A stretch of 64,000 nt of DNA from Candidatus Eiseniibacteriota bacterium (GTDB lineage: Bacteria; Eisenbacteria; RBG-16-71-46; CAIMUX01; VGJL01). Location of the stretch: contig CAWBWI010000001.1 in NCBI GenBank assembly GCA_963792585.1, forward strand, positions 864,001 through 928,000, in the 5' to 3' direction. Made by a program: the position numbers and the translations under genes. Shown one piece after another: positions 38,269 through 54,835 of this stretch. The notes beneath the pieces are model-generated. The model saw only the letters and a program-made list of their open reading frames with translations. It had not been told where the DNA came from and searched no databases. Positions within the stretch are counted from its first letter, which is position 1. Each line of letters opens with the position of its first letter.

Positions 38269-39645
38269 TCACGGGCGCAGGCCCGCCCACCGATTCGCGA
38301 GTTCCTTCGCCTCCTTGACGCAGCTGTTGATGGCCACCCCCCGGTAGGAATTGCCCGTCAGATGCAGACCGGGCGAACGCTCCAGGGACTCGGATATTCG
38401 TTCGAGCCGCCGTCCATGGCCGACGGCGTACTGCGGAATCCCGAGGTGGTGGCGGAAGATCCAGATCCTGCGCGGCGCCGCCTCGATTCCCATGCTCCGC
38501 TTCAGGTCCTCGCGCACGATTGCGAGCAGGTCGGCGTCCTGCAGGCGGACCGCCTCCGGATCCTGCGCGCCACCGATCATCGCGCGCATGAGGACCCACC
38601 CGGTCGGGGCTCTGTAGGAGAAGATGCTCGAATCCCAGAGACACCCCAGCACCCGGAGCCCCTGCCCCCGGGGCGCGAGGAAACCGAATCCATCCGGAGG
38701 TTCCGACGGCATGTCATCCGTCCGGTAGGCGAGCGCCACCACCGCCAATCCGGCGTAGGCGATCCCCTCGAGGTCCGTCGCCAGCCCGCCATCGAGAGGA
38801 CGCAGGAAGCGGGCCGCCGCCCTTGAGGGGGCCGCGACGATCAGGCGCCGCGCCTCGATCCGATCCGCACCAGTGCCGACTTCATATGCGTCCCCGGAAC
38901 GCGTCACGGAAAGGACCGGCCGATCGAGCCGGATGCGTTCGGGACCGATCCGCTCGGCGAGACGGTCGATCAGGCTCTCCATTCCGTCCCGAAACGAGGT
39001 CAGGACGCCTGCCGGCCCCGCAGGGCCTCCGGCGCGCGCCGCGCGTCTTGCCCGCTGGCGACGCGCGATCAAGGCGCGCACGAGGCTTCCGTGCTCGCGC
39101 TCCATCTCGGCCATCTTCGGGAACGTGCTTTCGAGCGAGAGCGTTCGCGAGTCGCCCGCGTACACCCCGGACACCATCGAGTCGACGAGGATCTCGGCGG
39201 CCTCTCGACCGATCCGACGCGACGCGAAGGCGAAGACCGTCTCATCGCCATCGGGCCTTCCGCGCGCGAACGGTTCGCCGAGAACGCGCAGTCGCCCCCG
39301 CACGGTGAGCAGATTCGAGGCAAGGAAGGCGGGAGGTTTGAGCGGAACCTCGCGCAGGCGCCCTGCGCGAAAGATGAAGCGCTTCCCGGCCGCGTCGCCC
39401 GCAGGGGTGACCGCGTCGCGGAGACCGATTCGGTCGATGAGTTCGAGAGTTTCCGGAACGCTGTCGAGGAAGCCGTTCACGCCCCACTCGACCGTGAAGC
39501 CGTCCTCGCGAGTTGTGCGGATGTTCCCCCCGAGCCGCCCCTCGGACTCGAGGACGATCAGCGAGGCGTCGGGCCGCACCCACAGGATCTCGCTCGCGCA
39601 GGAGAGCCCTGCGATCCCACCGCCGATCACGGCCCAGTCGAACAT
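38269..39645 (-). CDS. hemY: Protoporphyrinogen oxidase, HemY-type
   Basis: VIGGGIAGL FAD motif, RLGGNIRT, EWGVNGFL, SGVYAGD, IPQYAVGH, GNSYRGVAINSC. Confidence 0.92.
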   Translation of the reverse strand: MFDWAVIGGGIAGLSCASEILWVRPDASLIVLESEGRLGGNIRTTREDGFTVEWGVNGFLDSVPETLELIDRIGLRDAVTPAGDAAGKRFIFRAGRLREVPLKPPAFLASNLLTVRGRLRVLGEPFARGRPDGDETVFAFASRRIGREAAEILVDSMVSGVYAGDSRTLSLESTFPKMAEMEREHGSLVRALIARRQRARRAARAGGPAGPAGVLTSFRDGMESLIDRLAERIGPERIRLDRPVLSVTRSGDAYEVGTGADRIEARRLIVAAPSRAAARFLRPLDGGLATDLEGIAYAGLAVVALAYRTDDMPSEPPDGFGFLAPRGQGLRVLGCLWDSSIFSYRAPTGWVLMRAMIGGAQDPEAVRLQDADLLAIVREDLKRSMGIEAAPRRIWIFRHHLGIPQYAVGHGRRLERISESLERSPGLHLTGNSYRGVAINSCVKEAKELANRWAGLRP

Positions 39646-40616
39646 CAGCTCCCGCCCTGCAAGAGCGGCTCGACGAGGTCGGCCAGCGTGCTCACGAAAC
39701 GCGCCGAATCGTTGAGCGATCCCACCCGCACGAACCGGCGGATCCCCACCCCGGCGGCGAGATCCCGGAAGAGGATGTCGATCTCGTAGAGGGTCTCGAT
39801 GTGGTCGGACACGAAAGCGATCGGCACCACCACGACGCACGGGTGGCCGGCGAGTCGCTCGATCGTTTCGTCGGTGCCGGGCCCGACCCAGCGCACGGGC
39901 CCCGTGCGGCTCTGGAAGGCAAGGCGGTGTTCGTTCGGAAGGTCGAGGAGGCTCACGACGGCATCGACCGTTTCGCGGATCTGCCCCACGTACGGATCCC
40001 CACGACGCGGCAGCGACTCCGGCACGCCGTGGGCGCTGAAGAGGATCAGCGCCGCGTGGCGATCCGCCTCGCTCAGGGTAGCCAGCGTCTCCTGGATCCG
40101 CTCTACGATCGACGCGAGATAGCCGGGTTCGAGATGGTAGCTGCGGATCGGGACGATCTCGAGCCCGGGAGCGATTCGATCGCGGGCCCGCATCAGCGCA
40201 TCGAGACTCGATCCGGTCGTCGCGACGCACTCGTGCGGGTAGAGAGGCAGGGCGATCGCCCTCGTCTCCGCGGCATCACGCAGAGCGGTGACGACGTCCT
40301 CGGAACCCGGAGACGTATATCGCATGGCAATGGGTACGCGCGTCCCGGCGAATCCCCGCCGTTCGAGTTCCGCCTCCAACCCCGCCGCCTGCACGCGCGT
40401 GATGCGCAGAAGTGGGGATCCTCCGCCGATCTGCGCGTAGTAACCGCGGACCTTCGGGCTCCGGAACGTCGAGATCATCCGCGCGAAGAGGGGTTGCACC
40501 AGGCGTCCTCCCGGCAGCTCGATGATCATCGGATCCGAGAACAGGTTCCGCAGGAACGGGCGAACGTCGTCCAGGGTGGACGGTCCGCCGAGATTCATCA
40601 GGACGACCGCGGCCAT
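39645..40616 (-). CDS. hemH: Ferrochelatase
   Basis: MNLGGP, IGGGSPL, MRY..P, FSAHGVP, FQSRTGP..W, FVSDHIETLYEID. Confidence 0.96.
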   Translation of the reverse strand: MAAVVLMNLGGPSTLDDVRPFLRNLFSDPMIIELPGGRLVQPLFARMISTFRSPKVRGYYAQIGGGSPLLRITRVQAAGLEAELERRGFAGTRVPIAMRYTSPGSEDVVTALRDAAETRAIALPLYPHECVATTGSSLDALMRARDRIAPGLEIVPIRSYHLEPGYLASIVERIQETLATLSEADRHAALILFSAHGVPESLPRRGDPYVGQIRETVDAVVSLLDLPNEHRLAFQSRTGPVRWVGPGTDETIERLAGHPCVVVVPIAFVSDHIETLYEIDILFRDLAAGVGIRRFVRVGSLNDSARFVSTLADLVEPLLQGGS

Positions 40617-40617
40617 C

Positions 40618-42012
40618 CTAGACGGTGCGCGAGAAGGTCGGCTTCCCGTCGGCCTGCTTCGCCCTCAGGTACCGGTCGAAGATCATGCATATGTTTCGCA
40701 CGAAAAGCCGACCCGTCTGGGTGACGCGAATCGCCGTTTCATCGACCTCGACGAAACCGTGGCCGACCGGCCCCTTGAGTTCGCCCAACTCCAATGCGAA
40801 TCGCTCCGCGAACCGGATCCCGAACTTCGCCTCGACCGCCGGAATGTCGAGAACGAAATTGCACATGAGGTTCGAGATCACGTGCCGCCGCAGCTTGTCG
40901 TCGTCGTCGAGGACATAGCCCCGCTCGATGGGCAATCTTCCAGCGTCGAGCGCCTCATAGTAGGTCGACAGCTTCTTGACGTTCTGGGCGAAAGCTCCGC
41001 GCACGTCCCCGATCGAGGAAACGCCGAGCCCGAGCTGATCGGCCGCGGGCATGACGGTATAGCCCATGAAATTCCTCTGAAGACGCCCCTGCGCCTGCGC
41101 AATCGACATCTCGTCCTCGGGCAGCGCGAAATGGTCCATTCCGATCTGGCGGTATCCGGCCTCCAGGAAGGCGGCCATCGCCTGTCCGAACAGCTCGAAC
41201 TTGACCGCCGGGGTCGGCAGGGTCGCCGGATCGGTCTTCTTCTGGTTCCCACGGATCCAGGGAACGAAGGCGAAGCTGTAGACCGCGACCCGGTCCGGAC
41301 GCATGCCGACGATCTGATCGAGGTTCTTCGCGAACATCTCGATCGACTGCATGGGCAGGCCGTAGATCAAGTCCACGTTGATCGAGGCGAACCCCGCCTT
41401 CCTGCAGTACTCGTAGAGCTCGATCGTTTCCTCGAGTCCTTGATTGCGGGCGATCGCCGCCTGCACTTCCGGCGTGAAGTCCTGGATGCCCATGCTGAGC
41501 CGGTTGAAACCGGCCTCGCGCAGGTAGTCGATCTGCTCGTGGCTCGTCACGCGTGGATCGACCTCGATCGCGACCTCGGCCTCCGGGAGGATCCGGAACT
41601 GTGCGCGGATCGCCTCCATCAGCTCCCGCATCTCGGCGACGGTGTGGTAGGTGGGAGTCCCGCCCCCCCAGTGAAGCTGGTTCACCCGGCGACGGTGCGG
41701 AAGCCGCGAGGCGATCAAGTCGATCTCGCGCTCGAGATAGTCGAGGTAGCGCTGCGCCACGCCCGCCTTCTTGTTGATGATCACGTGACAGCCGCAGAAC
41801 GTGCATCGCTCCTGACAGAACGGGAGGTGGACATAGAGCGAGAGCGGCTCGTCGAGGCCGTCGGCCTCCGCGAGCCTCCCTTCATAGGCCCCGCAGTCGA
41901 ACGACTCGTTGAACTCGATCGCCGTTGGGTAGCTCGTATACCGCGGCCCCGGCCGGTCGTACCGGCGCAACAGCTCCGCCGTGACCTTTGCGGTGGGCGT
42001 CTCCCGTGCCAT
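40618..42012 (-). CDS. hemN: Oxygen-independent coproporphyrinogen III oxidase (radical SAM)
   Basis: GPRYTSYP, CQERCTFC, GGGTP, IGMDHFA, RNFMGY. Confidence 0.96.
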   Translation of the reverse strand: MARETPTAKVTAELLRRYDRPGPRYTSYPTAIEFNESFDCGAYEGRLAEADGLDEPLSLYVHLPFCQERCTFCGCHVIINKKAGVAQRYLDYLEREIDLIASRLPHRRRVNQLHWGGGTPTYHTVAEMRELMEAIRAQFRILPEAEVAIEVDPRVTSHEQIDYLREAGFNRLSMGIQDFTPEVQAAIARNQGLEETIELYEYCRKAGFASINVDLIYGLPMQSIEMFAKNLDQIVGMRPDRVAVYSFAFVPWIRGNQKKTDPATLPTPAVKFELFGQAMAAFLEAGYRQIGMDHFALPEDEMSIAQAQGRLQRNFMGYTVMPAADQLGLGVSSIGDVRGAFAQNVKKLSTYYEALDAGRLPIERGYVLDDDDKLRRHVISNLMCNFVLDIPAVEAKFGIRFAERFALELGELKGPVGHGFVEVDETAIRVTQTGRLFVRNICMIFDRYLRAKQADGKPTFSRTV

Positions 42013-42018
42013 CGCTCT

Positions 42019-43047
42019 CTACCCCTTCCGTCCGAAGCGTCGCACGGCATCCACGAACGCCTGCGCGTTCTCGACCGGAGTCTCCGGCAGGATGCCATGG
42101 CCGAGGTTCATCACGTGCCCCTTCGCGCCGCGCGCCTCCTCCAGGATCGCGCGCGTGCGTGCCTCGATCGTCTCGATGCTGCCCAGCAGGCAGCCCGGGT
42201 CGAGATTGCCCTGCACGGCGAAGCGGTCGCCGAGGATCTCCCGAGCCCGCGCAAGAGGAATGCGCCAGTCGACGCCGATCATGTCGGCACCTACATCGGC
42301 AATCCGCGCGAGATGGGTCGAGGCTCCCGGAGCGAAGTAGACGGTCGGCACCCCGGCGGCAGCAACTCTCTCCAGAGTCTCCCGCGCATACGGAAGCGCA
42401 AAGGTCCCGAAGTCCCCCAGCGAGAGAACGCCCGCCCAGGAATCGAAGAGCTGGATTGCCTGCGCGCCGGCCTCGATCTGGCGGCGGAGCGAGTGGACGA
42501 CCGCCTCGGTCAGCTTGCGCAGCAGCCGGTGAACCGTTGCCGGATCGCTGAAGAGCATCGCGCGGATCTCCGCCTGGTTTCGCGAGCCTCCCCCGCAGAC
42601 CGCATAGGTCGCGAGGGTGAAAGGCGCACCCGCGAAGCCGATCAGCGGAACCGTTGCGTCGAGTTCGCGACGCAGCATCGCGACCGCGTCGGCGACGCGA
42701 TCGGTCAGATCGCTCTGGTCTCCTGTGCCGAGTCGGTCGACGTCCGCCGAGGAACGAACCGGGTCGGGGATCTCGGGCGCCGGGTGGAAGAGGACTTCCA
42801 TCCCCATCGCGGCGAGCGGCACGAGGATGTCGGAGAAGAGGATCGCAGCGTCCACGCCCAGGCGCTTGACCGGCTGAAGGGTCACTTCCGTCGCGAGCTC
42901 CGGGACAGTGCACATCTCCCAGAACGTGTGTTTCCGGCGCAGCTCCTGGTACTCCGGCAAGTAGCGTCCCGCCTGTCGCATCATCCAGACCGGAGTTCGC
43001 TCGACCGGCTCGCCGCGGCAGGCGCGAAGGAACAGGTCGTTCTTCAT
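42019..43047 (-). CDS. hemE: Uroporphyrinogen decarboxylase
   Basis: PVWMMRQAGRYLPEY, AAILFSDIL, GFAGAPFTLATY, QGNLDP, NLGHG. Confidence 0.97.
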   Translation of the reverse strand: MKNDLFLRACRGEPVERTPVWMMRQAGRYLPEYQELRRKHTFWEMCTVPELATEVTLQPVKRLGVDAAILFSDILVPLAAMGMEVLFHPAPEIPDPVRSSADVDRLGTGDQSDLTDRVADAVAMLRRELDATVPLIGFAGAPFTLATYAVCGGGSRNQAEIRAMLFSDPATVHRLLRKLTEAVVHSLRRQIEAGAQAIQLFDSWAGVLSLGDFGTFALPYARETLERVAAAGVPTVYFAPGASTHLARIADVGADMIGVDWRIPLARAREILGDRFAVQGNLDPGCLLGSIETIEARTRAILEEARGAKGHVMNLGHGILPETPVENAQAFVDAVRRFGRKG

Positions 43048-44357
43048 CGAGTCTCCCCGAACGCCACGCCCAGCGCCTCCCGGGAAGCCTCCACGATCCC
43101 GTCGATTTCCTCCTCGGTATGGGCCGCGCACAGGAATCCGGCCTCGAACTGCGAGGGGGCGAGGTAGATGCCGCGGTTCAGCATCTCGTGGAAGTAGATG
43201 CCGAATCGCCGTGTGTCCGCGCTCTTGACCTCCTCCCAGTTCGTCAACGGTCCCGTCTTGAAGTAGAGGCAGCCGAGAGACCCGATGCCGATGTAGGTCG
43301 CGGGCGCGCCGAGGTCCCGCAGGTTCTTCTCGACGCCGGCGCGCAGCCGTGCGGCGAGCGCCTCCAGCTTCCCGTAGACGCTTCCATCACGGAGGTGGGC
43401 GAGCATCGCGCGTCCCGCCGCCACCGCGAGCGGGTTGCCCGAAAGCGTGCCTGCCTGATAGACGGGTCCCTCGGGCGCGAGTCTCCGCATGAGATCGCGC
43501 CGGCCGCCGTAGGCGCCGACAGGCAACCCGCCGCCGATCACCTTGCCCAGCGTCGTGAGATCCGGCGTCACTCCGAAGCGCTCTTGGGCCCCACCGTAAG
43601 CCAGTCGGAATCCGGTGATGACCTCATCGAAGATCAGGAGCGATCCCTCGCGGTCGCAGATCGAGCGCAGCCCCTCCAGGAATCCCGGCTCCGGCAGGAC
43701 GCAGCCCATGTTCGCCGCCACTGGCTCGACGATGATCGCCGCGAGCTTGCCCGGATAGGCGGCGAAAGCGGCCGCGACCGCTTCGAGGTCGTTGTACGGG
43801 ACATTCAACGTGTCCCTCGCCGTTCCCGCCGTCACGCCGGGAGAGCTCGGATTACCAAAGGTCGCCGCTCCCGAGCCGGCCTCGATCAGGAAGCTGTCTC
43901 CGTGGCCGTGATAACATCCCGCGAATTTCAGGATGACGTCGCGGCCGGTCGCCCCGCGGGCGAGCCGCACCGCGCTCATCGTCGCCTCCGTCCCCGAGCT
44001 GACGAGGCGCACCGATTCGATCGAAGGCACCGCCGCGACGATCTCCTCGGCCAGCGCGACCTCTCCCTCGGTCGGCGCGCCGAAGCTCGTCCCCTTCTCC
44101 GCCGCCCGAGCGACCGCCTCGAGAATGGCGGGGTGCGCATGCCCCAGGATCAGGGGACCCCACGACCCGACGAGGTCGATGTATTCGCTTCCGTCCACGT
44201 CCCAGATCCTCGATCCCGCGCCGCGGGCGACGAAGACCGGCCCGCCCCCCACGGCGCGGAACGCGCGCACGGGCGAGTTCACGCCGCCCGGGATCACCTC
44301 CGCGGCGCGCGCGAAGAGCGCGCCGCTATGCTCTCGGCCCCCGCTCAGCGCAGCCAC
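43044..44357 (-). CDS. hemL: Glutamate-1-semialdehyde 2,1-aminomutase
   Basis: [49 protein letters not shown]. Confidence 0.97.
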
Positions 44358-45316
44358 CGCGCGGCCTCCTTCGCGTGGTAGGTCAGGATCAGATCGGCTC
44401 CGGCGCGGCGCATCGACGTGAGCGTCTCGAGAACGATCCGCTCTCGATCGATCCACCCACGTTCCGCCGCGGCGCACACCATCGCGTATTCCCCGGAGAC
44501 GTTGTAGGCCGCGATCGGGGCGTCGAACTCCTCGCGCACCGCCCGGATCACGTCGAGGTAGGCGAGCGCCGGCTTGACCATGACGATATCGGCCCCCTCG
44601 TCGAGGTCGAGAGCGACCTCGTGGAGCGCCTCACGCACGTTGGCCGGATCCATCTGATACCCCCGGCGATCCCCAAACTGCGGCGTGGATCCCGCAGCCT
44701 CGCGGAAAGGACCGTAGTACGCCGACGCGTACTTCGCGGCGTAGGAGCAAATCACGGTGTCCGAGCAGTCCGCTTCGTCGAGGGTCTCGCGGATCGCCTC
44801 CACCCTACCGTCCATCATGTCGCTCGGCGCGATCACGTCCGCGCCGGCCCGCGCATAGGCCCCCGCCGCCCGCGCGAGCAGGGGAAGCGTCGCGTCGTTG
44901 TCCACGGTATCGCCACGCAGCACCCCGCAATGCCCATGGTCGGTGTACTCGCAGAGGCAGACGTCCGCCCAGACGGACAGGTCCGGCACCGCCGACTTCA
45001 CCGCGGTGATCGCGCGCGGGATGATGCCGTCGGTCGCATAGGCCTCCGACCCGACCGCGTCCTTCCTGTCGGGGATACCGAAGAGGATCACGCCGGGGAT
45101 CCCGAGCCCGCGCACCTCCTTGCACTCCTCGATCAGAAGATCGACGGAGAGCCGCTCCACCCCGGGCATCGCCTCGATCGGCAGTCGAACGCCCGATCCG
45201 TGGCAAACGAACAAGGGGAGGATCAGATCCTCGGCGTCGAGACGCGTCTCCCTCACCATCCGGCGCATCGTATCCGTGCGTCGCAATCTTCTCGGACGGG
45301 AAACCGGGAAGCTCAT
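44345..45316 (-). CDS. hemB: Porphobilinogen synthase
   Basis: [13 protein letters not shown] zinc site, [26 protein letters not shown]. Confidence 0.97.
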
Positions 45317-46743
45317 TGGGCTGCTCCTATCGATGGGACTTCCATCTTGTGGGGGCACGGGGATGGGATGCAGGCGTCGGCCAGCGCACTCATCGACGCT
45401 CCGAATGCCTCGGCGTCGGGAACGATTCCCAAGGCGCGAAGCGCCTTGCTCGTTGTCGGACCCATGGAGACGACGCGAATCTGGCGGGCCCCGTTCCCGA
45501 GGACCTCGATCCCGAAGCGCTCGGCGAACGCGCGGGCCGCCGATGCGCTCGCAAAGGTCACCGCGCAGATCGTGCCCGCGCGAAGCTCCTCGAGGATCTC
45601 GCGGGGCGCACTGGAGACCGCGAGAGTCCGGTATGCGATCCGCTCGTCGACGCGCGCACCCGCCGCCCGCAGCGCATCGGACAACTCCCTGCCGCCCTCT
45701 TCGGCACGCGGCAGCAGAACGCGCTTGCCCTTCAACTCCTCGAGCGCTGCAAGGGCCGCGGCCAAGCCCGTTCCCGTCGACTCCTCCGCGATCAGATCGA
45801 CACGCCCGAAGCATTCGATCGCGCGCCGGGCGGTCCCGGGACCGACCGCGGCCAGCCGCGTCGACATGGGCAAGGGGCCATCCGCGCCCCGCGCCCGCGC
45901 GAAGGCGTCGACCCCCCGAGCGCTCGTGAAGAGGATCCACCGGTAGCGCGAGACTTCCGACGCCGCCTTGCGAAGCGGGGTCGGATCCTTGGGCGGCTCC
46001 GTCCGCACGAGCGGGCAACGAACAGGCACCCCGCCAAGTGCCGCGATGGCACGCGAAAGGCCCCCGTCCGGCTCTTCTTCGCGCGTGACGAGAATCCTCT
46101 GCCCCGCGAGCGGGGCCGCCTCCGGCGATTTCGGGACACTCAGGCTCCGGCTGATGAAATCGAAGAGCGCCTCGGGCTCCGGCCGGCCGCGGGCGGGACC
46201 GTGTCCGTCCTCGATGCAGCGCAGGGCGGCTCCTTCAAGGCATCCGAAGATCAGATCGGTGGCGAACTCGGGCTCGAGAGGACGGAAGGTCCCGTCCTGA
46301 ACCCCCCGTGCCAGAACGTCCCGGAGGAGCTGACGGAGGTCGTTGCGCAGCGCATCGAGTTCCCGCGGCGCCCCGAGCGCCGGGCACGAGCGTTCCTTGC
46401 GCAGGATTCGGAAGAAGTCGGGGTACTTCACGAGGAACATGAGGGAGTGGACGACGATCTTGCGCAAGCGGACCCGGGCCGATTCTTCCTCCTCGAACAG
46501 ATCGTGAAGGGCGGCGAGGAGGCTGTCCATCCGCGCCGTGATGATCGAGAAGTAGAGGTCCTCCTTGGACTGGAAATGATTGTAGAGCGTTCCCTTCGCC
46601 ACGTGTGCGTGGGCCGCGACTTCCTCCATGGTGACCCGGGATAGCTCTCGCCCCGCGAAGAGAGGCGCCGCTGCATCGAGGATCCGGGCCCTCTTGCCCC
46701 TCGTTCGCCCTCCCCTGGCGGGGGGCTGGACGGTCTCGTTCAC
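45313..46743 (-). CDS. hemD: TetR-family regulator fused to uroporphyrinogen-III synthase (TetR-HemD)
   Basis: GTG start overlapping the hemC stop. Residues 1-~200 are TetR (ILDAA..LF...[23 protein letters not shown]). From residue ~212 HemD (ILVTR, FTSARGV, VGPGTA, AYRT, FASASA, MGPTT). Confidence 0.9.
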
Positions 46744-47693
46744 GGTGCTCCCCCCTCGGCGCCGGCGGCGCGAACGGATTCGAGGATCGCTCCCGCGCCA
46801 CTCTGGATCAGCTCGGCCGCAAGCTGCGCCCCGATGTCGTCCGCCTCTTCGATTCGCCCGGCCTTCCGCCCGCGCAGCAATGTGCGTCCTCCGGGGTCGG
46901 CCACCATTCCATCCAGGTCGAGCCACGCCGCATCCCCGGCGCGCGGCCGCGCGTGCGCCCCCACGGGCACCTGACAACCACCGCCCAGGGCATGCAGAAA
47001 CCCTCGCTCCGCGTCGGTCGCGGCCCGCGTCGTGGAATCCTCCAGTCGCGAGAGGAGGTCCGCCATCCGGGCATCGCAATTTCGGATCTCGACTCCCAAC
47101 GCGCCCTGCCCCGGCGCGGGAAGCAGCAGCTCGATGGAGAGGACCTCGCTCACCGACTCGAGCAGGCCGAGTCGCTCCAGCCCCGCCCGGGCGAGGATCA
47201 CCCCGTCGAACTCCCCCGAGATCCCCTTGCGTACGCGCGTGGGAACGTTGCCGCGCAGCGTCTCGACCCTCAGGTCGGGCCGTGCGTGGAGCAGCTGCGC
47301 CTGACGCCGGAGGCTCGAGGTGCCGATGCGCGCCCCGGCCGGGAGTGCCGCGAACCGTTCCCCGTGGGCAGAGATCAAGGCATCCCTCGGATCGGTCCGC
47401 GAGAGGACCGCCCCGAGTCTGAGCCCATCGGGGAGCTCGGTCGGCAGATCCTTCAGGCTGTGCACGGCGAGATCGCACCGACCATCGAGAAGGGCCTCCT
47501 CGATCTCCTTCGTGAAGAGCCCCTTGCCACCGATCTTCGCGAGTGGCGCGTCCAGGATCCGATCCCCCGTCGTCGAGATGATCGTGATCTCGACGACACA
47601 CCCCGGCTCAATGGAGCGGAGCAGATCGGCCACGTGCTCGGCCTGCCAGCGGGCGAGGTCGCTTCCCCGAGAGCCGATCCTAAGCGCCGTCAT
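46740..47693 (-). CDS. hemC: Hydroxymethylbilane synthase
   Basis: GSRGSDLARWQA, GKGLFTKEIE, VHSLKD, GTSSLRR, LGGGCQVP. Confidence 0.97.
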   Translation of the reverse strand: MTALRIGSRGSDLARWQAEHVADLLRSIEPGCVVEITIISTTGDRILDAPLAKIGGKGLFTKEIEEALLDGRCDLAVHSLKDLPTELPDGLRLGAVLSRTDPRDALISAHGERFAALPAGARIGTSSLRRQAQLLHARPDLRVETLRGNVPTRVRKGISGEFDGVILARAGLERLGLLESVSEVLSIELLLPAPGQGALGVEIRNCDARMADLLSRLEDSTTRAATDAERGFLHALGGGCQVPVGAHARPRAGDAAWLDLDGMVADPGGRTLLRGRKAGRIEEADDIGAQLAAELIQSGAGAILESVRAAGAEGGAP

Positions 47694-48960
47694 CGTCGCG
47701 ATCCTCCGATAGCCCGAAGAGGCGTCGAACGGTGTCGAGCCGACCGAGCATTCCAGAGCCGTGCCGCTGGAAGCTCTTGATATTGACGGTCGGATCGTGG
47801 AGCAGCTTGTTGACGATCCCCTTCGTCAGCGCCTCGATCTGCTCCCGGTCCTTTTCGCAGAGCTTGCGCCCGTACTTTTCCACCTCGAGCGCGCGGACAT
47901 TCTCGAATCGCTCGCGCAGCTCCCGGATCAGCGGGGCGACCTCGAGCGCGCCGTACCATTTGAGGAAATGGTCCAGCTCCTCGTGGATGATCGCTTCGAC
48001 CTTCGGGATCTCGCGACCGCGCCGTTCGAGGTTCGCCTTCACCAACCCTTCGAGGGCATCGATGTCGTAGAGGAAGACGTTTTCGAGCTTCGCCACGGAG
48101 GGCTCGACGTCGCGAGGGACCGCGAGGTCGATGAACAGGAGGGTCCGGCCACCGCGAGAGGCGAAGACCCGACGAACCATCTCCTGCCGGATAACCGGCT
48201 CGGGCGACGCGGTTGCGGTGACGACGATGTGGGCCCCGGCCATGGCCTTCTCGATCTGGTCGAACGGCACCGCCCGCCCCCCCAGATCCGCGGCCAGTTC
48301 CATCGCCTTCTCGTGGGTGCGGTTGACCACGACGATCTGGCCGACCCCTTCCTCCTTCAGGTGGAGCGCGGCCAGGCGGCCGGTCTCCCCGGCGCCGATC
48401 AACAATGCCGTTCGTTGCCCCATGTCGGAGAAGATGCGCGAGGCGAGCGAGACTCCGGCGTAGCTGACCGAGACGGCGCCGACGCCGACCTCGGTCTCGC
48501 TGCGGACGCGCTTGCCGACGCGAAACGCGGCATCGAGAAGTCGCTGCATCAGGGGTCCGGCGGTCCCGGCCCGCCGAGCGATCTCGAAGGCCTCGTGGAC
48601 CTGGCCGAGGATCTGGACCTCGCCGACGATCATCGAGTCGATCGAGCTGGCGACGCGGAAGAGGTGGGACACCATCTCCCGCCCCGAGTGGGTATAAAGG
48701 GTGCCGTCGGTCTCTCCGAGATCGAGCCCCCGGTGCGATCGCACCATCTCGAGGAACTGCTCTCGTCCGAGGTCCGTCGTGTCGGCGAGAGCGTAGAGCT
48801 CGGTTCGATTGCAGGTGGAGAGCAGCAACCGCTCGGGCATCGCGTCGGGCGTGCCGGCGCGACGCAGGAGTTCCTCCGCTTCCCCGCCGGCGAAGGCGAG
48901 CCGTTCCCGCAGCGAGAGCGGGGCGGTCCGGTGGCTCAGGCCAACGACGACGAGATCCAT
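47680..48960 (-). CDS. hemA: Glutamyl-tRNA reductase
   Basis: GLSHRTAP, LSTCNRTE, DSMIVGEVQILGQ, IGAGE, DLAVPRDVE. Confidence 0.97.
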   Translation of the reverse strand: MDLVVVGLSHRTAPLSLRERLAFAGGEAEELLRRAGTPDAMPERLLLSTCNRTELYALADTTDLGREQFLEMVRSHRGLDLGETDGTLYTHSGREMVSHLFRVASSIDSMIVGEVQILGQVHEAFEIARRAGTAGPLMQRLLDAAFRVGKRVRSETEVGVGAVSVSYAGVSLASRIFSDMGQRTALLIGAGETGRLAALHLKEEGVGQIVVVNRTHEKAMELAADLGGRAVPFDQIEKAMAGAHIVVTATASPEPVIRQEMVRRVFASRGGRTLLFIDLAVPRDVEPSVAKLENVFLYDIDALEGLVKANLERRGREIPKVEAIIHEELDHFLKWYGALEVAPLIRELRERFENVRALEVEKYGRKLCEKDREQIEALTKGIVNKLLHDPTVNIKSFQRHGSGMLGRLDTVRRLFGLSEDRDDDGA

Positions 48961-49787
48961 GCCAGTCCCGCGAAACGGTGGAACGAGTGGATGAAGAAGT
49001 TCAGGGCGACGAGCGCCAACCCCATCAGGAGAAAACCCCCGATCGAGAGGTAGACCGTGCGGTGGCCGCGCCATCCGAGGAGATAGTGCGCGACCAGACA
49101 GATGGCATAGATGATCCACACGAAGACGGTCGTCAGGAACATCGGGTCGGTCATGAAGCTGGGATAGAGCCGCAAGGCCCACCGGATGCCGACCGGAATC
49201 GCGATCGTCAAGGCCGCGAACCCGAAGGCGGCTGCCCGGATGTTCATCTTCGCGAGGACCTCGAGCGGAGGAAGCTTCCGGTAGACCAACCCGAAGCGAT
49301 TCGCCTTCAGCTCGTTGTACAGAAGCAGGAAGAGGAAGCCGTAGATCGCCGATACCGCGAACGCCGAGTATCCGAGGATGGCGCTAAGCGTGTGCAACCC
49401 GAAGAGGGGCTCTCGCAGCAGCGGCTTGACTTCCCCGGCGAGCGCGATGCGCCCCGACGAGGCGAACTGCAGGAGCGCCGAGAAGCCGACCAGGAAGAGA
49501 CCGGTCATGACATTGCGCGTGCGTGTCTCGACGTAGCCGTACGCGGCAGCAGTGGAAAAGGCGATCACCGTCAGAATCTCCGGCGCGGTCGCCAGTGGAA
49601 TCCTCTTGTGGAAGAGGATGAACGTGGTCAGAAACGCGAGGTGGGTCACAAGGGTGATGAGGAAGACAGGTCGGGCATAGGGTGAGTAGCGGTCCCCGCG
49701 GCCGAAGAAGCGCATGCCGTAGAGGACGACGCTCAAGACGTAGAGCGTCGGCACCGCACAACGAAGGACCGGGAGCAGATGGCTCAT
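48936..49787 (-). CDS. HemX/CcsA-like cytochrome c assembly family membrane protein
   Basis: About 8 TMs, LHTLSAILGY, LPPLEVL, degenerate WWD (MTDP), C-terminal HSFH; directly upstream of hemA. Confidence 0.8.
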   Translation of the reverse strand: MSHLLPVLRCAVPTLYVLSVVLYGMRFFGRGDRYSPYARPVFLITLVTHLAFLTTFILFHKRIPLATAPEILTVIAFSTAAAYGYVETRTRNVMTGLFLVGFSALLQFASSGRIALAGEVKPLLREPLFGLHTLSAILGYSAFAVSAIYGFLFLLLYNELKANRFGLVYRKLPPLEVLAKMNIRAAAFGFAALTIAIPVGIRWALRLYPSFMTDPMFLTTVFVWIIYAICLVAHYLLGWRGHRTVYLSIGGFLLMGLALVALNFFIHSFHRFAGLAWISSSLA

Positions 49788-49827: not shown

Positions 49828-49847
49828 TGAACTGACCAGTCAGTTCA
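49828..49847. promoter_or_regulatory. 20-bp palindromic operator candidate for the hem operon
   Basis: TGAACTGAC-CA-GTCAGTTCA, perfect 9-bp arms, immediately downstream of the predicted transcription start. Confidence 0.75.
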
Positions 49848-49854
49848 ATAATGC

Positions 49855-49883
49855 AGGCTAACCCACCAAGGTGACCCGGTCAA
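49855..49883 (-). promoter_or_regulatory. Sigma70 promoter of the hem operon
   Basis: Minus strand TTGACC-N17-TAGCCT. Confidence 0.6.
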
Positions 49884-49889
49884 GCCTCT

Positions 49890-50711
49890 CTAATCCGTCG
49901 GGGGATCCCCCTCGGCATCCAGGTCGAGGTCTCCCTGACTGGGGCGATCCCTCCGGTTGAGCCAGAGAGCCGGCTCTTCCCGTTCCAGGAAGGCCTGGGT
50001 CAGGGACCCGAAGTCCTCCGCCCCCGTGCTGGTCGGGGCCGTCACCTGGATGGGAGCATGGAAGCCCCCCGCCTCGGCCAGGCGCGCGTTCTCACGGATC
50101 GGCCCCAGGACGAACGCCCCGTACTTTTCGCGCAATGCCGTTTCGAGTCGATTGCTCAAGCGCGTATGGACCGTCCGGTTGGGAATGATCCCGATCGTGC
50201 GCAGGCGCGGATTCCGATGTCGTTTGACCTGATCGACCACGTCCATCAACAGGTCCATCACCGCGACATCCAGCTCCCGCGTGGAGACCGGAATCAGCAC
50301 GCCGTCCGCGCAGGAGAGGGTCGCCACAAGCAGCGATCCCCACGTCGGTGGTGTGTCGACGAAGAGGTAGTCCACGTCCGGTGGGACCTGACCGATCAGG
50401 TGGGCGAGCCTGTCCCGCGTGGGATGCGTCCCGTTGTCGAACGGCGCTAGCAATCGACTGCTGGGAGCGATGCGGAGCCCACTGACGAGCGTTGATAGGA
50501 GCACGTCCGTGAGCCTCTTCTCTCCCGAGAGCGTGTCCGCCATGTTGCCATTCGAGGATCGGGGCAGAAGGTGGAAGGTGCTCGATGCCTGCGGGTCGAG
50601 GTCCATCAGGATGACCTTGCGACCCGTCAATGCGATACCGGCGGCGAGATTCACGGCGATGGTCGTCTTGCCGGAGCCACCCTTAATGTTAGCAACAGCA
50701 TACGTTCTCAT
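49890..50711 (-). CDS. ParA/Soj family ATPase (no adjacent parB)
   Basis: KGGSGKTT deviant Walker A, DLDPQ, VDTPP, IRENARLAEA. Confidence 0.9.
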   Translation of the reverse strand: MRTYAVANIKGGSGKTTIAVNLAAGIALTGRKVILMDLDPQASSTFHLLPRSSNGNMADTLSGEKRLTDVLLSTLVSGLRIAPSSRLLAPFDNGTHPTRDRLAHLIGQVPPDVDYLFVDTPPTWGSLLVATLSCADGVLIPVSTRELDVAVMDLLMDVVDQVKRHRNPRLRTIGIIPNRTVHTRLSNRLETALREKYGAFVLGPIRENARLAEAGGFHAPIQVTAPTSTGAEDFGSLTQAFLEREEPALWLNRRDRPSQGDLDLDAEGDPPTD

Positions 50712-50810
50712 GGGTCTCCCGATTTTGCCGGTCAGGATAAAACCGGCCGTGAGCATAACCCATGGAACGACCGTCTGCTAGGCCGGATTTCGCCCTCCGC
50801 GGCGACGGGT

Positions 50811-53081
50811 CTAGTGCCCCCGGAGTTTGTTCAGCGCGCTCCCCGCGCGGAACCAGCCTATCTGCTCCTCATTCAACGTGTGTCGCAGGATGACCGCCTC
50901 GGTCGACCCGTCGTCGTGAACGAGGCGGGCGACCACGTCCCTCCCAGGGGCGAGCGCCTTCAACCCGGTGAGGACGACCCGGTCGCCTTCCCGGACCTTC
51001 TCATAGTCGGCGACATCTACGAACGTCAGCGGCAGGATCCCCTGCTTCTTGAGGTTCGATTCATGGATGCGCGCGAATGAGCGGACGATCACCGCCATGC
51101 CGCCGAGGAACCGCGGGGACATGGCGGCGTGCTCGCGGCTCGAGCCTTCCCCGTAGTTGTCGTCTCCGACCACGACCCAACGCCGGCCCTCCTTCTTGTA
51201 GGCGCGGGCGATCGTCGGGATCGGTTCCCCCGTCTTGCCGGTCAGAAGGTTGCGGCCGTGCCCCGTCTCGCCGGTGAAAGCGCTCACGGCCCCGTTGAAC
51301 ATGTTGTCGCTGATCCGATCGAGGTGGCCGCGATAGCGCAGCCACGGGCCGGCGGGAGAGATGTGGTCGGTGGTGCACTTGCCCTTGGCCTTGAAGAGCA
51401 GCAGAAGTTCGATCTCGTCCGCGCCGTCCCATGCGGGGAAGGGCTCGAGGAGCTGCAGCCGTTCGCTGCGGGGATCGACCTCGACTGCGATCGATCCTCC
51501 GCCCGGCGGCGGGCGCCTCATATCCGCTTCGGTCCTTCACGAATCCGTTCGGGGGCAGCTCCGGCGCCTTCTTGGGAGGCTTGAGCCGCAGCTTCGCCCC
51601 GCCGGCCGTCGACGACCTCGTCCACGTTGGGATCGAAGGAGAGACGGCCCGCCAGTCCGAGCGCCATCACGATCTCGGGACTCGCGATGAAGGCCAGGGT
51701 GTTTGGATCCCCGTCGTTGCGCTTGGGGAAGTTGCGGTTGAAGGATGTCAGGATCGAGTTCGGCTCCCCCTTCTCCCTCGCCCGCTTCCACTGCCCGATG
51801 CACGGACCGCAGGCGTTCGCCAGGACCTTCGCGCCGACCGACTCCAGGCTCGCAAGCTGGCCGTCGCGCTCGATCGTCGCGCGGATCTGCTCGCTCCCCG
51901 GAGTGACGAGCAGCTCGCTCGTCATCCGCACCCCCTGGGCGTGCGCCTGCTCCGCCACGTCGGCGGCGCGCGAGATGTCTTCGTAGGAGGAGTTCGTGCA
52001 GGAGCCAACCAACGCGACGGTGATCGCGTCCGGGTATCCCTTCTCCTTCACCTCCGCGCGCGAGTCGCGAGACCGGGCGCGTGAGATCCGGCGTGTGCGG
52101 TCCGACGATTTGCGGCTCGAGCTTCGAGAGATCGATCTCGACGATCCGCTCGAAGAACCGCTCCGGCGCCTTCTCAACCTCGGGATCCGCGGTGAGGAGG
52201 CGGCGGAATCGCTCGGCCAGTTCGGCGAGCCCCGAACGGTCGGTGGCGCGGAGGTAGCGGGCCATCGGCGCGTCGAAGGGAAAGACCGATCCGGTGGCGC
52301 CCAGTTCTGCGCCCATGTTCGTGATCGTTCCCTTACCGGTGCAGGAGACCTCCGCGGCGCCGGGCCCGAAGTACTCGAGGACGCGATTGGTCCCCCCCTT
52401 CACGGTGAGCAGTCCGCAGAGGTAGAGGATCACGTCTTTCGGCGACGTCCAGCCCGACAACGCGCCGGTCAGATGGACGCCGATCAAGGTCGGGTACTTG
52501 ACCTCCCATGGAAAGCCCGCCATCACATCGACCGCGTCGGCCCCGCCCACACCCGAAGCGATCATGCCGAGTCCGCCGGCGTTTGGGGTGTGCGAATCGG
52601 TTCCGATCATCAGTCCGCCCGGGAACGCATAGTTTTCCAGGATGACCTGGTGGATGATGCCCGCGCCCGGCTTCCAGAAACCGATCCCGTACTTCGCGGA
52701 GACGTCGTGCAGGAAGGCATAGACCTCGCGGTTCTCGTCGAGAGCCGCCTGCGTGTCGGCAGACGCCCCCACGCGCGCCTGGATCAGGTGATCGCAGTGA
52801 ACGGTCGTCGGAACGGCCGTGCGATCCCGCCCCGCGAGCATGAACTGCAGGAGCGCCATTTGCGCCGTCGCATCCTGCATCGCGACCCGATCCGGCCGGA
52901 GCATGAGGTAGCTCTTGCCGGCCTCCAGATCCTGGCTCTCTGGATCGTCGAGGTGACCGAGCAGGATCTTCTCCGAGAGGGTCAGAGGGCGGCCAAGACG
53001 CTTGCGGGCGACCGCGAGACGCTCTTCCATCTTCGCGTAGACGCCGGCAACGAACTCAGGGGTCGAGTCGATCGATTGCAT
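50811..53081 (-). CDS. Aconitate hydratase (AcnA/mitochondrial type) split by 3 apparent +1 frameshifts
   Basis: [60 protein letters not shown], in different frames. Breaks near 52058, 51607 and 51503. Confidence 0.9.
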
Positions 53082-53867: not shown

Positions 53868-54770
53868 TCAGGAGGGTGCAACCGCGCGCGCCCAGTCGTG
53901 GACCTCCGAGAAGCTCCCCATGACGAGGGTGCCGGTCAGGGGGCGGGCCCCCTCACCTCCGAGTATCAGGTGGATTCGACGGGGGAGCTTCCGCCGCAGT
54001 TTCTGGATCTGCCCGGTCATCCTCGACCCGCGTCCGGCAACCGAAACGCTCAGGGCGACGGCGCTCGCTCCCCGCTCAACCGCAAGCGCAGCGACCTGCT
54101 CCGGCGGAACCTCCGTACCGAGGTAGAGGACTCGACGCCCCGCGCTGGCCATCGCTAGCGCCGCCATCTGCAGCCCGAGGGCATGGGTTTCTCCCGGAAG
54201 CGTCGCGAGAATCATTGAGGGTCCATCCGCCCGTTCCTCGAAAGGCAGGCGCAGCGTCCGCAGGAGGTCGGCGATCCGCTCGGAGAGGAAATGCTCGTGC
54301 CGAATCTCGAGCCGACCTTCGGCCCACTCCTCCCCCACCGCCCGGACCAGCGGGGTGATCGCGTCGTTGAGGTAGGCCACCGGTCCCAAGCGCGCCCAGT
54401 CGAGGAGAAGCAGGTGGGTCAGTTGCTCCGTGTCGAAATCCCGGACGGCTTGGAGAAGGACTTCGAGAAGGGCGGGACTCGTACCCGTCCCCTCCGGTCC
54501 GACCTGGGACCGCTGTCCGTCCCACGTCGTCCCTCCTACCCGGAGGAGTCGATCGAGGTCGTTCTCGTCCGCGCCGACGACTTCCGCAGCGCGGTGCCCC
54601 ATGGCGATGGCCTCGGCGACCTTTCGAAGGCGGGGGATGTTCGCGGTGGCATAGACGCGATGTCCCGAGGGCTTTCGATCCGGCGCGGGGAACCCATAAC
54701 GGCGTTCCCAACTGCGTAGGGTCTCGATTGGGATCGATGTCGCGCGGGAGAGAGCTCCGATCGTCAACAT
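53868..54770 (-). CDS. CarH/LitR-type MerR regulator with B12-binding domain
   Basis: TLRSWERRYG MerR HTH, W-x9-EH (WAEGRLEIRHEH), ETHALG cobalamin motif. Alternative start at 54812. Confidence 0.88.
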   Translation of the reverse strand: MLTIGALSRATSIPIETLRSWERRYGFPAPDRKPSGHRVYATANIPRLRKVAEAIAMGHRAAEVVGADENDLDRLLRVGGTTWDGQRSQVGPEGTGTSPALLEVLLQAVRDFDTEQLTHLLLLDWARLGPVAYLNDAITPLVRAVGEEWAEGRLEIRHEHFLSERIADLLRTLRLPFEERADGPSMILATLPGETHALGLQMAALAMASAGRRVLYLGTEVPPEQVAALAVERGASAVALSVSVAGRGSRMTGQIQKLRRKLPRRIHLILGGEGARPLTGTLVMGSFSEVHDWARAVAPS

Positions 54771-54835
54771 TCCGGTCGAGTCAACGGAAGCCCTTCCCCT
54801 CCTCGAGTTCATCGAACCCCCCATTCGTCGCGGCC

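Follow-up and report, generated by a model that had tools for sequence, protein, structure and literature searches.

A conserved TetR-HemD fusion, likely a repressor of its own heme-biosynthesis operon, in Eisenbacteria and Ignavibacteria

Introduction

Can an enzyme of heme synthesis also repress the operon that encodes it? This question is raised by a 64,000-nucleotide stretch of a Candidatus Eiseniibacteriota genome (GenBank assembly GCA_963792585.1, contig CAWBWI010000001.1, positions 864,001 to 928,000; hereafter, the window), in which one gene of a ten-gene heme (hem) operon joins a TetR-type regulator to HemD, the uroporphyrinogen III synthase. A preliminary description of this DNA had proposed a bifunctional trigger enzyme that couples tetrapyrrole flux or heme level to transcription. 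Our results support the regulatory half of that proposal but not the coupling of flux to transcription through the enzyme domain. Specifically, the fusion likely represses its own hem operon, because a candidate palindromic operator at the operon's predicted promoter co-occurs with this TetR family across two phyla.

Proteins that unite an enzyme and the repressor of its pathway in one chain are exemplified by BirA, NadR, and PutA, in which the enzyme's own ligand state sets DNA binding. For heme synthesis, two reviews (PMC11442138, PMC10991733; these and the papers cited below are drawn on for the portions of their text available to us) list Irr, HbrL, HrrSA/ChrSA, PerR, SpxA1, and the membrane protein HemX as regulators and, in those portions, give TetR proteins for heme efflux only. 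Our literature search, in which subscription papers were thinly covered and some queries were blunt, returned no study of a TetR-HemD protein and none of a hem operon repressed by a TetR. One supplement file of a fusion survey (PMC4921024) held no match for TetR-HemD, and the accessible text of PMC3362086 makes no mention of hemD or of a TetR family protein. Both domains already appear in some protein names of the databases, so that the architecture has been recorded, as an automatic annotation. What we describe here belongs to known kinds, namely, a probable TetR autorepressor and an enzyme-repressor fusion.

Results

The TetR-HemD fusion is a real, conserved gene. As the preliminary description had stated, it forms one uninterrupted open reading frame (ORF) of 476 aa, and Pfam searches confirmed both of its parts, with matches to TetR_N (PF00440; aa 21-65, E 2.7e-15, 56.3 bits against a cut-off of 24), TetR_C_24 (PF17932; aa 88-171, E 2.6e-8), and HEM4 (PF02602; aa 229-455, E 1.1e-50, 172 bits against a cut-off of 27.5) that all exceed the curated cut-offs. 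Codons 105 to 239 contain no in-frame ATG, GTG, or TTG, so that the HemD part, which begins at about aa 212, has no start of its own, again as claimed. The start of the gene overlaps the hemC stop (GTGA), with a G/A-rich ribosome-binding site ahead of it, and its stop overlaps the hemB start (ATGA). The fusion thereby occupies the hemC-hemD-hemB slot that had been described for it, in an operon ordered ccsA-like, hemA, hemC, fusion, hemB, hemL, hemE, hemN, hemH, and hemY. It also carries the sole HEM4 match in the genome (one match; genome 84% complete), in agreement with its earlier designation as the only hemD of an otherwise complete operon.

Assembly indels that faked the fusion had been an explicit worry. 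Indels do occur nearby: the aconitase gene (50823-53072, minus strand) shows three frame changes relative to an intact 757-aa frame in a related genome (G003), which are probably assembly indels, and overlapping tetR/hemD pairs that are naturally unfused exist elsewhere. Nevertheless, the idea that an assembly or sequencing error joined two genes retains practically no probability and is already refuted by three lines of evidence. First, 19 full-length homologues, with identities of 44-92%, have the same fusion, and the sources of two of them give the label Candidatus Eisenbacteria. Second, 5 of the 205 other genomes of the phylum contain it, and the gene order around it is always the same over the length that the contigs cover. 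Third, two independent contigs support the junction: one (X3), with 261 differing letters in 4901, covers the stretch gap-free, and the other, from an RNA library (X18), crosses the TetR-HemD junction gap-free. The RNA-library contig is not proof of expression, and the contigs give no transcript start or level.

The fusion extends well beyond its own phylum. A GTDB profile scan added 30 loci at 28-31% identity, titled Ignavibacteria or Bacteroidetes, and all 30 encode both domains in one frame. The fusion, placed in the same operon, was seen in more than 30 Ignavibacteria, and a full-length match was found in 18 of 301 genomes of the class. Our sample of this second phylum comprises loci from 60 of the 117 matching Ignavibacteria-class genomes; these share a ccsA-hemA-hemC-hemD-hemE scaffold, as far as the contigs reach, and include 17 fused genes, 5 separate tetR genes directly before hemD, and 38 operons without tetR. 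The tetR stop overlaps the hemD start in all of the unfused pairs (5/5), and the family members of the source phylum are all fused (6/6). Further, the hemC-hemD gaps of five TetR-less relatives, inspected by eye, held no recognisable regulator. An exhaustive search returned additional fused clusters and stand-alone members, among them one named Zixibacteria and one Bacteroidota cluster.

A few records show other arrangements of these genes and domains. At one locus (L160:5920-7344), the fusion gene stands behind unrelated genes, with no hem operon within 6 kb, and at three others (L135:5337-6022, L147:5330-5995, and L163:5432-5992), all in Ignavibacteria, a Cys-containing, lipoprotein-like ORF of about 200 aa lies between hemC and the fusion. 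Protein P0123 (607 aa) combines two receiver domains, part of a TetR C-terminal domain, and HemD and has no TetR helix-turn-helix (HTH) match; possibly, its DNA-binding head was replaced, or the record is a misassembly. The single record of protein P0162 (685 aa) unites a HemC C-terminal fragment, the TetR C-domain, and a portion of HemD; it may be a frameshift read-through.

Upstream of ccsA, the first gene of the operon, we identified a candidate operator, a 20-bp palindrome that reads as two GAC-N6-GTC units offset by 4 bp and is unique in the genome. It lies seven bases behind a promoter-like hexamer pair and overlaps the predicted transcription start of the ten-gene operon. A palindrome centred on ACTGACYRGTCAGT is found upstream of ccsA in all six fusion genomes of the phylum; six fusion-less relatives lack this palindrome and give no match to the pattern even at one mismatch. 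In a matrix scan of the whole genome (5.4 Mb), the site scored 33.5, relative to 15.1 for the next best, with a matrix that had been built with the site included. The exact 17-nt pattern occurs in 5 of 206 genomes, all of them fusion carriers, with the sixth carrier at two mismatches, and the exact 14-mer has a single occurrence, at the hem promoter, in each of the five genomes checked. Six one-mismatch pattern matches in non-carrier genomes lie inside ORFs and were rejected as chance. The distance from a -10-like hexamer to the start of the site, which follows it, is 0-8 bp in 23 of 24 loci, and a placement just behind the -10, as predicted here, is a repressor's position. In one Ignavibacteria branch (L213-L217), the two 14-bp units that otherwise overlap stand 44-53 bp apart instead, near the -35 region and at the predicted start. 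The operator shows no listed substitution in four of four close relatives, a comparison with only 6 differing places in 161 bases, too few for a footprint.

To what degree does this site follow the TetR in the second phylum? A matrix weighted on the six own-phylum sites alone was applied to the stretch of 150 bp that precedes ccsA, for 56 of the 60 Ignavibacteria-class loci, with 4 dropped that had no ccsA or upstream DNA. Scores of at least 7.1 were obtained for 17 of the 19 TetR-bearing hem operons (13/15 fused and 4/4 unfused), versus at most 3.4 for all 37 TetR-less operons. On a HemC tree (67 rows, one skipped, with kin that are not independent of each other), TetR and site each change state 7 times, and in 5 independent pairs on well-supported branches, site and TetR go together in 4.8 on average and in opposite directions in none. 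These data bear on an alternative reading, according to which the palindrome is another regulator's site and the TetR half is a passenger or is active elsewhere. Such a reading can draw on the other TetRs that the genome holds, the link between this TetR and the palindrome being a predicted one. Yet, the site tracks this particular TetR family through those state changes, a second member of the family was not found in this genome, and the TetR has changed faster where the site was lost (in one lineage); we therefore regard the involvement of another regulator as very improbable.

Both TetR-bearing operons without a high-scoring site come from that one lineage (L162/L219, L163, L164, and L221). 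There, an SPFH gene now terminates about 20 bp ahead of ccsA, and the promoter region has disappeared. The best scores further upstream were 3.9 in L163, 6.4 in L221, and 9.9 in L164, the last inside an ORF, and none was convincing. In this lineage, the TetR ligand domain has an identity of 0.32-0.34 with three outgroups, relative to 0.51-0.54 in four site-bearing relatives, and that of the HTH has fallen from about 0.70 to 0.58-0.60, with HemD steady at 0.60-0.62. The loss of the site counts as a single event, and purifying selection on the HTH persists in the lineage. In L163 (904-2373), the hem operon of the site-lost lineage follows a ferritin-like gene and the SPFH gene, and heme synthesis may now share control with iron storage in these organisms.

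Several points weigh against autorepression through this site. The hexamer pair (TTGACC-17-TAGCCT) has 8 of 12 matches, below the scan threshold of 9, and no promoter was called; the -10 positions of the 24 loci are best-of-many picks. The 14-bp form of the matrix was picked after 26 Ignavibacteria upstream regions had been viewed, and two of the test loci repeat viewed regions, leaving 16 of 17 without them. Two TetR-bearing operons lack the site, and a sign test over the five pairs gives p 0.0625, the best attainable with five.

The TetR half was modelled with nine helices (predicted local distance difference test, pLDDT, 91). Its best fold match, tied with several TetRs, was 1vi0 (Z 20.4, root-mean-square deviation [rmsd] 2.6, 183 aligned), and AibR was among the matches (Z 18.6, rmsd 2.5, 176 aligned). 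The closest solved relatives by profile were 3whb and 1vi0 (E 1e-25), while the ESM Atlas returned generic TetR clusters only. The best sequence and fold matches were of the FadR/YsiA, PfmR, DarR, and KstR2 types, repressors that control lipid or sterol genes. These nearest solved relatives share a K-G recognition helix with the fusion, at about 20% identity, and differ from it in having no enzyme fused. Across the family, the recognition helix is nearly constant (K50 in 58/59, G51 in 59/59, and Y54 in 58/59), and the ratio of nonsynonymous to synonymous substitution rates (dN/dS) is 0.00-0.06 for the HTH and 0.02-0.15 for the ligand domain, on which purifying selection in most pairs is as strong as that on the enzyme. 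The conserved basic residues include R71 (48/59), K106 (44/59), and R175 (48/59).

The HemD half appears intact as an enzyme, in line with the usual motifs that had been attributed to it. It has the two-lobed fold of uroporphyrinogen III synthases, with 4es6 as its match (Z 22.2, rmsd 2.8, 242 aligned), and in an alignment to the human enzyme (1jr2), Y371, S399, and G428-T431 fall on the YQT, FSPS, and GPTT motifs. None of the residues Y371, G301, T304, S399, G428, and T431 varies among the 92 fused rows, a count that includes duplicates. We take these conserved positions to be the catalytic ones. In 10 Ignavibacteria pairs, the dN/dS of HemD is 0.04-0.12, and the fusion holds the only HEM4 match in each of five Ignavibacteria tested. 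Because it is the sole HEM4 copy and occupies the hem operon slot, the HemD half likely supplies the cell's uroporphyrinogen III synthase, an enzyme that has been reviewed as a monomer with seven invariant residues (PMC13564367).

The trees suggest how the two halves came together. In a quick tree, the TetRs of hem operons, fused or unfused, form one clade relative to the 21 nearest other TetRs (support of 95 in the Shimodaira-Hasegawa-like approximate likelihood ratio test, SH-aLRT), within which stand-alone members come between the Eisenbacteria-type fusions (support 96) and the Ignavibacteria fusions (92). The HemD halves cluster by lineage together with unfused HemDs, and constraining the 23 fused HemD rows to one clade was rejected (approximately unbiased [AU] test, p 3e-7; 51 of 140 rows used). 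Fusion thus probably arose at least twice, and the simplest reading of these phylogenies is that an old hem-operon tetR gene was joined to hemD at least two times and lost often. One small indel would fuse the separate genes, given their stop-to-start overlap. As the trees are unrooted, a single ancient fusion with later splits and losses is a possible alternative history.

Discussion

The core of the mechanism that we propose, namely, TetR dimerisation, DNA binding (probably by two dimers, on the two units offset by 4 bp), and repression, can be held with high confidence on the comparative evidence. A TetR dimer, or two dimers, on the palindrome would cover the start site and shut the ten-gene operon, including the fusion's own gene. 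Such double occupancy has a parallel in DarR, which occupies overlapping palindromes as two dimers (PMC10636190).

What might the repressor sense? A synthesis operon must be shut by its product, and the sign of the response is, therefore, opposite to ordinary TetR logic. AibR of Myxococcus xanthus (PDB 5k7f/5k7h/5k7z) offers a precedent: it lies inside the biosynthetic operon that it controls, recognises an 18-bp, 8-2-8 inverted repeat by means of Lys47 and Tyr51, and represses only with the end product bound (PMC5389471). The fusion resembles AibR in being a TetR within a biosynthetic operon under its (predicted) control, in a palindromic site with a 2-bp centre, in the spacing of K50/Y54 (four residues, in the recognition helix), which matches that of Lys47/Tyr51, and in its fold. 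It differs in that AibR is a stand-alone protein with isovaleryl-CoA as ligand, another operator sequence, and about 21% identity, and in that ligand-dependent binding has been shown for AibR, whereas for the fusion it is inferred only. On this precedent, we favor co-repression by a heme-pathway product: the TetR pocket itself would sense heme or another product of the pathway as co-repressor, in the manner of AibR, and plentiful product would shut the operon. We consider the chances of this particular signal to be evenly balanced.

The following speak against it. The nearest solved relatives of the TetR half are FadR-type acyl-CoA binders. H99 is conserved in 46 of 59 members, and the family alignment has no other conserved His or Cys; as a heme ligand, H99 was judged generic, since PfmR carries the same His. 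A second candidate, the CP motif C120-P121, was rejected as a heme motif because it is not conserved across the family. Finally, the heme-sensing TetRs are released by heme (PMC11442138), which is the wrong sign for a synthesis operon. These proteins (HrtR, FhtR, and HatR) were absent from the top 60 sequence and top 50 fold matches of the TetR half, with kinship still possible.

A second account keeps the enzyme and the autorepression and would have a FadR-like pocket respond to an acyl-CoA or another metabolite, with release of the repressor as is usual for TetRs, or would do without a ligand, as simple damping of its own operon. The FadR/YsiA, PfmR, DarR, and KstR2 matches favor it, as does the want of a conserved bis-His or CP motif, and R71, K106, and R175 would suit CoA phosphates as well as porphyrin carboxylates. 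However, a single site per genome, at the hem promoter only, fits a pathway-specific signal, and the purifying selection on the ligand domain speaks against the ligand-free variant. We consider a non-tetrapyrrole signal rather unlikely, if the most serious competitor to co-repression by a pathway product.

The trigger enzyme of the preliminary description would work differently again, in that substrate or product in the HemD half would alter DNA binding by the TetR half, such that transcription reads flux directly. Three observations lean toward it: the fusion has been kept in at least two deep lineages, probably with more than one origin; the members in the source phylum are fused without exception; and NnaR places a HemD fold in a regulator, where sensing has been proposed only (PMC11162112). 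Against this, operons with separate tetR and hemD retain the site (4/4), and unfused pairs overlap stop to start, which makes fusion mutationally easy. In addition, the linker between the two domain envelopes varies from 0 to about 57 aa among Eisenbacteria-type homologues, the full-length model (predicted template modelling score, pTM, 0.54) has a low-confidence linker and no fixed domain arrangement, and the TetR ligand domain is complete and conserved. A predicted complex of the HemD half and two TetR halves scored 0.00, which is evidence neither way. With the site kept in all four unfused operons and a one-clade origin of the fused HemDs rejected, the trigger-enzyme step is left unsupported, and we find it distinctly unlikely. 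The same low probability attaches to its most specific form, in which the HemD lobes would close on hydroxymethylbilane or uroporphyrinogen III, or would pass product to the TetR pocket, and so set operon repression, a device that would have evolved at least twice, in two phyla, from an undescribed family of heme-synthesis repressors.

The presence of the site before hem operons with separate tetR and hemD argues, instead, that the regulation is independent of the fusion. In the mechanism that we prefer, co-repression through the TetR pocket, the fusion would be a secondary join of two overlapping, co-translated neighbours that links repressor dose to enzyme dose and is dispensable for control. 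The protein resembles BirA, NadR, and PutA in having an enzyme and a DNA-binding domain in one chain, with its own pathway as the (inferred) target, and differs from them in having a complete TetR sensor domain and in that control exists without the fusion.

Comparison with other systems further delimits what the fusion is. HrtR, FhtR, and HatR, which repress heme efflux genes and are released by heme, likewise belong to the TetR family and serve heme homeostasis; unlike theirs, the only strong candidate site of the fusion in the genome precedes a synthesis operon and not an efflux operon. The heme ligands of HrtR are His72 and His149 (PMC11442138), whereas the fusion family has one conserved His, H99, as judged by family conservation. 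NnaR of Actinobacteria, an activator of nitrate assimilation with an OmpR-type winged helix whose HemD is reported to be inactive in Streptomyces coelicolor (PMC11162112), also combines HemD and a DNA-binding domain in one chain. In NnaR, however, the HemD is N-terminal, whereas the fusion runs TetR and then HemD and has no OmpR domain, and its HemD is the sole copy, lies in a hem operon, and keeps the conserved residues. Lastly, CobA/SUMT-HemD proteins likewise join a partner to the N-terminus of HemD and occupy the same operon slot, the partner being a methyltransferase and not a regulator. Among the nearest matches to the HemD half that lack a TetR part, many are such CobA/SUMT-HemD fusions, and no SUMT match was found in the genome studied here. 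At one metagenome locus (L054), a tetR of the same family lies between hemC and a SUMT-type HemD-fusion gene, directly before the latter.

What this locus suggests is a TetR repressor dedicated to a single operon, that of heme synthesis, with a predicted operator and with members across little-studied phyla. If co-repression by heme or a porphyrin holds true, this would be a sensor of a sign opposite to that of HrtR and useful for feedback control in heme-producing strains. Further, nature offers operons that are unfused, that are fused, and that have lost the TetR or the site, and their comparison could show whether the joining of an enzyme and a repressor creates regulation or is a fusion of neighbours only.

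Features of the locus

Table 1. Coordinates of the fusion gene, its domains, the candidate regulatory elements, and the genes of the hem operon in the window.
Feature	Position	Strand	Details
tetR-hemD fusion gene	45313..46743	-	476 aa, single stop-free ORF; GTG start at 46743, TGA stop at 45313
TetR helix-turn-helix, aa 21-65	46549..46683	-	PF00440; recognition helix with K50, G51, T52, Y54
TetR ligand-binding and dimerisation helices, aa 66-203, FadR/PfmR/AibR-like	46135..46548	-	PF17932, domain model, fold match
Linker, about aa 204-211, low confidence	46111..46134	-	
HemD / uroporphyrinogen III synthase domain, aa 212-460	45364..46110	-	PF02602, fold match 4es6
HemD domain residues			T220-R221, F272-T273-S274, G301, T304, Y371, S399, S401, G428, T431
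Candidate operator, 20-bp palindrome	49828..49847	.	9-bp arms, 2-bp centre; 40-59 bp before ccsA start
Predicted sigma70-like promoter	49855..49883	-	-35 TTGACC (49883-49878), 17 bp, -10 TAGCCT (49860-49855)
ccsA/HemX-like membrane protein, first gene of the operon	48936..49787	-	PF01578
hemA, glutamyl-tRNA reductase	47680..48960	-	
hemC, hydroxymethylbilane synthase	46740..47693	-	
hemB, porphobilinogen synthase	44345..45316	-	
hemL, class-III aminotransferase in hem operon	43044..44348	-	start approximate
hemE, uroporphyrinogen decarboxylase	42019..43047	-	
hemN, oxygen-independent coproporphyrinogen III oxidase	40618..42012	-	
hemH, ferrochelatase	39645..40616	-	
hemY, protoporphyrinogen oxidase	38269..39645	-	

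Two of the gene names in Table 1 are partly our own assignments: the ccsA-like gene is presumably HemX-like, and the class-III aminotransferase is taken to be HemL from its position in the operon. Between the aconitase gene and ccsA lies a gene for a ParA-type ATPase (49890-50756, minus strand), which also precedes ccsA in four of the six fusion genomes of the phylum. In the order to which the source genome belongs, a HEM4 match is missing in 17 of 35 genomes, including two family members that are 99-100% complete, and heme synthesis appears to have been lost often in this order. Further upstream of the operon, a gene at 53868-54824 (minus strand), beside that of a fasciclin protein, encodes MerR HTH and B12-binding domains and is, we presume, CarH/LitR-like.

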